The notes under the pieces were generated by a model. The model was not told where the DNA came from. It saw only the letters and a list, made by a program, of their open reading frames with translations, and did no database searches. This document shows, in pieces, positions 33,417-35,045 of a DNA stretch of 64,000 bases. Numbering within the stretch: position 1 is the stretch's first letter; every line of letters begins with the position of its first letter. Origin of the DNA: Mobula hypostoma (lineage: Eukaryota); contig NC_086097.1 of the NCBI RefSeq assembly GCF_963921235.1, forward strand, positions 171,494,001-171,558,000. The letters run 5' to 3'. The position numbers were made by a program, and so were the translations under genes.

Positions 33417-35045
33417 CAGTTGAAGTCAGAAGTTTACATACACCTTAGCCAAATACATTTAAACTCAGTTTTTCACAATTCCTGAAATTTAATCCTAGAA
33501 AACATTTCCTGTCTTAGGTCAGTTAGGATCACTACTGTATTTTAAGAATGTTAAGTGTCAGAATAATATTAGAGAGAATGATTTATTTCAGCTTTTATTT
33601 CTTTCATTACTTTCCCAGTTGGTCAGAAGTTTGCATACACTTAGTATTTGGTAGCATTACCTTTAAATTGTTTAACTTGGGTCAAATGTTTTGGGTAGCC
33701 TTCCACAAGCTTCTCACAGTAAGTTGCTGGAACTTTGTTCCATTCCTCCAGACAGAACTGGTGTAACTGAGTCAGGTTTATAGGCCTCCTTGCTCGCACA
33801 CACTTTTTCAGTTCTGCCCACAAATTTTCTATTGGATTGAGGTCAGGGCTTTGTGATGGTCACTCCAATACCTTGACTTTGTTGTCCTTAAGCAATTTTG
33901 CCACAACTTTGGAGGTATGCTTGGGGTCGTTGTCCATTTGGAAGACTCATTTGTGACCAAGCTTTAACTTCCTGGCTGATGTCTTGATGTCTTCAATATA
34001 TCCACATAATTTTCCTTCCTCATGATGCCATCTAGTTTGTGAAGTGCACCAGTCCCTCCTGCAGCAAAGCACCCCCACAACATGATGCTGCCACCCCCAT
34101 GCTTCACGGTTGAGATGGTGTTCTTCAGCTTGCAAGCCTCAGCGTTTTTCCTCCAAACAGTAGTCATTATGGCCAAACAATTCAATTTTTGTTTCATCAG
34201 ACTAGAGGACATTTCTCCAGAAAGTAAGATCTTTCTCCCCATGTGCACTTGCAAACTGTAGCTTGGCTTTTTTTTAATGGCGGTTTTGGAGCAGTGGTTT
34301 CTTCCTTGCTGAGTTGCCTTTCAGGTTATGTCGATATAGGACTCATTTTACTGTGGACATAGATACTTCTGTACCTGTTTCCTCCAGCATCTTCACAAGG
34401 TCCTTTGCTGTTGTTCTGGGATTGATTTGCACTTTTTGCGCCAAAGTACATTTCATCTCTAGAAGACAGAATGCGTCTCCTTTCTGAGCGGTATGACGGC
34501 TGCGTGGTCCCATGGTGTTTATACTTGCATACTGTTGTTTGTACAGATGAACGTGGTACCTTCAGGCATTTATAAATTGCTCCCAAGGATGAACCAGACT
34601 TGACATCATTTTCTGACCTCAATCTGATAGAAAATTTGTGAGCAGAACTGAAAAAGCGTGTGCGAGCAAGGAGGCCTACAAACCTGACTCAGTTACACCA
34701 GTTCTGTCTGGAGGAATGGAACAAAATTCCAGCAACTTACTGTGAGAAGCTTGTGGAAGGCTACCCAAAATGTTTGACCCAAGTTAAACAATTTAAAGGC
34801 AATGCTACCAAATACTAACAAAGTGTATGTAAACTTCTGACCTACTGGAAAAGTGATGAAAGAAATAAAAGCTGAAATAAATCATTCTCTCTACTATTAT
34901 TCTGACATTTCACATTCTTAAAATAAAGTAGTGATCCTAACTGACCTAAGACAGGGAATGTTTTCTAGGATTAAATGTCAGGAATAGTGAAAACTTGAGT
35001 TAAGTGTATTTGGCTATGGTGTATGTAAACTTCTCACTTCAACTG
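33417..35045 (-). mobile_element. Sleeping Beauty-family Tc1/mariner transposon, rearranged with two right IR/DR ends
   Basis: TA-CAGTTGAAGTCAGAAGTTTACATACAC...GTGTATGTAAACTTCTCACTTCAACTG-TA; inner DRs at ~33614-33643 and ~34821-34850; arms 33417-33845 and 34612-35045 are inverted copies. Confidence 0.95.
33641..34602 (-). pseudogene. Tc1 (Sleeping Beauty-like) transposase pseudogene lacking about the first 19 codons
   Basis: [124 protein letters not shown]. Contains frameshifts and a stop. Confidence 0.95.

Follow-up and report, generated by a model that had tools for sequence, protein, structure and literature searches.

A Sleeping Beauty-family Tc1 element with two right-type ends and a templated seam in cartilaginous-fish DNA

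Transposons rearranged at one end

Replacement of one transposon end by an inverted copy of the other has been described among the mariner elements. In Rpmar49 and Rpmar17 of Rhodnius prolixus, the 5' part is replaced by the inverted 3' part, and Rpmar49, with 13 independent copies amplified from one progenitor, indicates that rearranged elements of this kind can multiply (Filee et al. 2015, PMC4678618). The reverse swap, in which the 3' part is replaced by the 5' part, is described for seven sublineages of Drosophila mariner, and the origin of such mariner rearrangements is called elusive in the same paper (Wallau et al. 2014, PMC4161770). A Bari1 variant has two identical long ends (PMC4877112), a loosely kindred case that is not presented there as an end swap. 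In a search of the open-access literature, we found no right-right IR/DR family and no end swap of IR/DR ends.

Sleeping Beauty (SB), 1638 nt in length (PMC6362248), carries an enhancer in its left end, and the arrangement of its IR/DRs is reported to hold defective derivatives in check (PMC5224488). For transposition of SB, the half-DR is described as dispensable (PMC7827188). SB has a preference for one of its two ends, and a doubled left end gives higher activity (PMC4505599, PMC8151067). In the excerpted text of a 2022 survey, SB elements are given for ray-finned fishes and one mollusc only, with no cartilaginous fish among the hosts, and SB TIRs of up to 415 bp are tabulated, among which there may be similar long-armed elements (PMC9777934).

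A decayed SB-family Tc1 element of 1629 bp was located at 33417-35045 of the window, that is, of the whole 64-kb stretch of DNA analysed. It shares with the salmonid-type SB/Tss1 elements the IR/DR ends, the DD34E codons and the TA duplication, and differs from these in the absence of the left IR/DR, the half-DR-like motif and the ATG, in its broken frame and in its cartilaginous-fish host. With Rpmar49 and Rpmar17 it shares a 5' part replaced by the inverted 3' part, long terminal repeats with transposase sequence in the arms, and non-autonomy; both of those lineages belong to mariner, have short ends with a single site and for the most part fall below the length of the parent (900-950 bp in most Rpmar17 copies), whereas the present element has Tc1 IR/DR ends, has lost the presumed enhancer, has kept full length and carries a templated filler at its seam. 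Dromar7, 11, 28 and 36 likewise have one end replaced by the inverted other end, and long inverted repeats, but are shortened mariners swapped in the opposite direction. Galileo copies with extended TIRs are also non-autonomous and have recruited internal sequence into longer inverted repeats, but belong to the P-element superfamily and, in the excerpts of the source, keep both native ends without an end swap (Marzo et al. 2013, PMC3573991). The published mariner precedent lowers the surprise of the architecture; the seam of the present element keeps a 15-base record of the polymerase path, through which the origin of an end swap can be read. We consider it likely that the element is a dead copy, in a ray, of a non-autonomous SB/Tss1-type Tc1 derivative, born by template switching, moved in trans and inserted at more than one TA site. 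The significance is modest, and concerns transposon specialists.

Anatomy of the element, its family and its insertion site

Two complete copies of the family, found with a 21-base pattern on two metagenome contigs (L005, 1613-3251; L006, 32-1670), served as the family reference. Each is 1639 bp long and flanked by TA, and 14 positions are different between the two. L005 carries a 340-codon open frame, whose product shares 92.6% identity with a named protein of Salmo trutta; both copies are called salmonid-type in this analysis, with PDB 5CR4 and Pfam HTH_SB as additional points of comparison to SB. On the L005 contig, a different Tc1-like element with 65-bp inverted ends (44-1610) adjoins the SB-type copy, with a TA in common.

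The element in the window is flanked by TA dinucleotides at 33415-33416 and 35046-35047. The inverted arms of the element (33417-33846 and 34613-35045) align over 434 columns at 93.1% identity, with 25 substitutions (16 transitions and 9 transversions) and 5 gap columns, corresponding to an arm-to-arm divergence (K2P) of 0.061. Both ends are closer to the right IR/DR of L005 (214/234 and 214/232 columns) than to its left IR/DR (only 168/250 and 164/256 columns), and the right-type letters extend outward as far as the outer DR at both ends. The native right IR/DR, on the minus strand, occupies 33417-33644 (outer DR, 33417-33448; inner DR core, 33628-33640), and the second right-type IR/DR, on the plus strand, occupies 34819-35045, the inner boundary being approximate in both. 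Each of the four DR cores is retained, with 0-1 mismatch, and they lie 15 and 211-212 positions in from each end, so that each end, about 230 bp in length with an outer and an inner DR, is of the SB/Tss1 type. A degenerate half-DR-like motif, located by its similarity to the DR and without use of a published sequence, is found at offset 153 in the left end of the reference only, and neither end of the element carries it; by similarity only, we take it as the putative enhancer of PMC5224488 and PMC7827188. The left IR/DR, this motif and the ATG are all gone from the element. A first-pass annotation of this DNA had proposed a palindromic SB-like transposon with two right ends, inverted arms of about 430 bp, and loss of the left IR/DR and the start codon. 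Alignment of the arms to each other and to the family, as suggested there, and comparison with the intact L005 and L006 bear out each of these points.

The minus strand from 34602 to 33417 corresponds to reference 445-1639, beginning with the final base of codon 19 and reaching the right end, and includes a dead SB-family transposase at 33641-34602 (codons 20-340 and the stop). The catalytic codons D153, D244 and E279 of the DD34E triad are kept at 34198, 33934 and 33829. In the Pfam scan, HTH_SB was above its cutoff and DDE_3 just below. The earlier description of an almost complete transposase from about codon 20 is right for the coverage, 321 of the 340 codons, but not for intactness, since the coding part contains 6 indels and is interrupted by 4 in-frame stops. 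Against the L005 protein, the identity is 86-87% in two blocks and 68% in a frameshifted block; at the codon level, pS is 14/215 and pN 43/733, a pattern of decay that looks neutral. On the plus strand, the right arm at 34613-35045 corresponds to reference 1206-1639, and its coding part, 34613-34818, is the inverted copy of codons 274-340 and the stop, in agreement with the last 68 or so codons read from the sequence before. With two right-type ends, the stops and the indels, the element is not an autonomous SB. It is also not short or free of coding remnant in the manner of a MITE; the suggested step toward a MITE is not borne out, since in reference coordinates (1639) the element has the full length of an intact copy, and shorter derivatives were not encountered. 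Within the 64-kb window no second copy was found.

When the flanks were joined over one TA with the element removed, one continuous dispersed repeat was restored. A search of the window by nhmmer with the joined flanks gave 11 matches, of which six had E<0.01, and all six span the insertion point; at the TA, three of these are ungapped, while the gap there is 3 nt in two others and 12 nt in the last. Since the joined flanks are continuous with a single TA, one TA belonged to the target and was then duplicated, as in SB/Tss1-type insertion, and the empty site aligns with repeat copies carrying one TA. The left half of the split repeat is at 33331-33416, ending in the left TA (start approximate), and the right TA with the right half is at 35046-35115 (end approximate). 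The TA ends and the read-through of the flanking repeat, as first described, are both confirmed; the repeat was named there as a SINE, and we likewise presume that it is one.

Against L005, the element is 92.5% identical over 1201 bp of DNA, with a pS of 0.065. Such an identity between an element of a cartilaginous fish and a salmonid-type copy points to horizontal transfer. The plasmid collection gave no match to the element, and the viral contigs gave no match to the DR pattern and four distant Tc1-like loci, which were not used. The 21-mer matched three bacterial genome contigs, of which one (L007) was aligned and showed a 24-bp match only (L008 and L009 were left out). A search of sequencing runs listed 24 runs, with a best word share of 0.32 and none sharing at least half. 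Four of these (X1, X2, X4 and X21), compared over 33847-35400, carry L005-type letters with no depth past 35094, and show the normal family continuation at 34613.

The seam and its formation

The minus-strand copy and the inverted arm are joined through a seam at 34601-34615, in which all 15 bases match the minus-strand reading of reference 261-275 (window 34601-34615 to reference 275-261). The source is located in the 5' UTR, inward of the left inner DR by about 30-45 bp, in a region otherwise missing at the locus. The first 2 bases of the seam (TG) are common to the transposase side and the last 3 (CTG) to the inverted arm, leaving 10 bases of pure filler. The filler is present once across both strands of the reference; in 200,000 shuffles, a shuffled 10-mer was found in the element in 0.93%, and a shuffled filler with both microhomologies in 0.04%, which equals the rate of regenerating the original string. 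The flip of the sequence noted before at about 34603-34612 is followed by the inverted copy as stated; this stretch, however, is templated 5' UTR filler and not a plain flip. A weaker alternative source is a 12-base match on the opposite strand (L005 1915-1926), with one base left over. The 5' UTR of the family has an 11-bp inverted repeat (L005 1873-1926), one arm of which supplied the filler; the repeat may form a hairpin, which could favour switching.

Based on the 15-base filler from the 5' UTR and its 2- and 3-base microhomologies, the simplest reading of the seam is that it was made by two template switches. During repair or replication of the founder copy, synthesis would have begun on the right end instead of the left, a mix-up of two ends of which the first 27 bp are identical in L005. 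It would have run 434 nt inward from the right end, switched through the 3-base microhomology into the 5' UTR, copied 15 nt there, and then jumped through the 2-base microhomology to codon 19, skipping 169 bp including the ATG; the order of the switches is what we infer from the arrangement of the pieces. These pieces, 1195+10+434, add up to 1639, equal to the intact length. The equality was spotted post hoc and is measured in salmonid-type coordinates; it may reflect a length-conserving return to the original template, or chance. Autointegration was considered as an origin and ruled out, as neither switch point is at a TA.

Alternatively, the founder could have arisen by a deletion joining two neighbouring, oppositely oriented copies, one possibly already without reference 276-444, in which case the seam would record two events apart in time. 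Deletions also yield microhomology joins, the filler is colinear with the minus-strand copy and could be what an internal deletion left behind at an earlier time, and Filee et al. propose a deletion-type model for the mariner Rpmar49 (PMC4678618). This origin requires, however, a second copy beside the first and leaves the agreement of the total with the intact length unaccounted for, and we regard it as possible but doubtful. In 15 places both arms differ from L005 alike, and L006 agrees with them in one of these; the shared differences fit one source copy and equally a local subfamily, and so do not decide between the two origins. That the palindrome is an assembly artefact from a fold-back read is hardly credible. 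The arms differ by 6%, which excludes an assembly fold-back, with private changes in each (14 in the left, 11 in the right); the filler is templated from a part missing at the locus; and the seam recurs in a RefSeq protein whose sequence is not the same as that of the window.

A second record of the seam and its bearing on mobility

A reading frame crosses the seam on the plus strand at 34549-34815, running from antisense N-terminal codons through the filler into C-terminal codons, and is closed by two stops. Residues 140-228 of P0249 (XP_062905703.1), the RefSeq TTC33 isoform X3 of Mobula hypostoma found by the C-terminal frame search, match this frame over 89 residues with 91% identity, and the match runs through all three parts. 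P0249 has all six residues that separate both arms from the salmonid type, the only one to do so among the 120 proteins listed. When 1.84 billion cluster representatives were searched by phmmer for the seam, read through X, P0249 alone of the 64 hits spanned it. In the minus-frame protein search, no seam carrier was detected among the 120 matches listed of 296. Three minus-frame matches with a reported coverage of 97% were rejected as ordinary 5' UTR and N-terminus, and a LINE reverse transcriptase (P0043) matching a loose seam motif was treated as a chance match. The seam was not seen in the four runs X1, X2, X4 and X21, which are not from the host, among the 15 of 346 joints, the loose ends and the 32 of about 297,000 pieces listed. 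In the RefSeq prediction, a sister copy of the element would serve as the last exon of the TTC33 isoform, in which 94 transposon-derived residues replace the normal C-terminus.

Between P0249 and the window, 8 of 87 codons differ, 5 through changes of P0249's own and 3 through changes of the window, while the two arms of the window differ at 6 of 67 residues. The similarity of these two values indicates that the two records parted about when the arms began to diverge, as would be expected for separate insertions of one burst or age. P0249 most likely represents a second insertion at a different locus, which argues that the right-right form moved as a unit; the shared breakpoint that marks a rearranged lineage of the Rpmar49 type is seen here in a protein, the only form in which the second record was compared, its flanks, second arm and TA sites lying outside the comparison. 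Of the two readings offered at first, one of a right-right derivative that is mobile and one of switching in situ, neither stands alone: the seam bears the marks of switching at the origin, and P0249 favours later movement as a unit.

After the switches, the right-right product would have kept four DR binding sites in the IR/DR layout and ends adjacent to TA, and would still have been a substrate for transposase. Without the half-DR enhancer and the start codon, it was movable only by transposase from intact copies, hence the mobilisation in trans that we infer. Right-right ends are reportedly the weaker pair, after Izsvak in 2002. The form would then have entered several TA sites (two or more), of which the present one lies within a short repeat, and since insertion the arms would have decayed neutrally by about 3% each. 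Insertion at two or more sites is quite probable, and the right-right form is probably a small mobile family; the element itself is dead.

The opposite view, that the rearrangement was a one-off at this locus that never transposed, with P0249 an orthologous insertion in another Mobula species or a segmental duplicate, appears unlikely. There are just two records of the seam, and the right-arm change P277L is common to P0249. The 135 ORFs scanned contain no non-transposon Pfam family (ALKBH8_N aside), so that the window may be a long intron. It could belong to a TTC33 intron of great length in another Mobula species, or to a duplicated segment. Rays are described as having many chromosome fusions (PMC12361510). 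Against this, the distance between the records is close to that between the arms, so that the species would need to have split at the time of the insertion, and a nuclear divergence of about 4-5% would lie between them. P277L, with CCA in the left arm and CTG in the right, may represent parallel CpG decay. Residues 1-139 of P0249 gave no tblastn match in the 64-kb window, and are thus missing from the 34 kb upstream of the element. It is very improbable that the palindrome was kept because an RNA hairpin, as a source of siRNA or piRNA, silences the family. RNA of either strand could physically fold into a long double-stranded stem, 33600-34860 being predicted to fold as one stem at -622 kcal/mol (a single fold, without shuffle control), and the RefSeq model of P0249 implies a sister copy in a transcribed gene; but the arms have not been kept alike (6.1% K2P), and the decay against L005 looks neutral by the counts given above. 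With the separate-insertion reading preferred, one may speculate further on a natural right-right SB family without the half-DR enhancer, that arose through a double switch with conservation of length and reached many copies in devil rays, with 430-bp hairpins scattered into introns and one used as an alternative TTC33 last exon. We put this forward tentatively, as an extension that has a fair part of conjecture and is possible but less likely than not. If the right-right form spread, ends without the enhancer were mobilised by wild SB transposase at a frequency sufficient for copies to remain; a family of many copies would provide a natural in vivo test of the importance of the left-end enhancer and a worked-out origin for end-swap rearrangements.

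In the surroundings of the element, the Pfam scan of 135 ORFs of the window (approximately 130 of the 142 ORFs of at least 80 aa, 12 being left out, and 5 that are shorter or around the element) gave matches to reverse transcriptase (RT), ALKBH8_N and transposase only. The two ALKBH8_N matches are read as LINE-associated, one sharing its ORF with an RT match. Dense LINE remnants in both orientations occupy 36400-46700 and 54700-58400, with a 499-aa open LINE RT frame at 45183-46679, for which the closest named matches are from Hypanus (75% and 82%) and Chiloscyllium (81%), those from birds and turtles being about 40-53%. An RT fragment at 15873-16316 has a translation that we take to be of the LTR type. 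A 70-bp inverted repeat, with arms 80% complementary and 4 nt apart, is present at 40314-40457, and a minisatellite of 15 copies of a 46-bp unit, with 91% matches, at 1363-2053.
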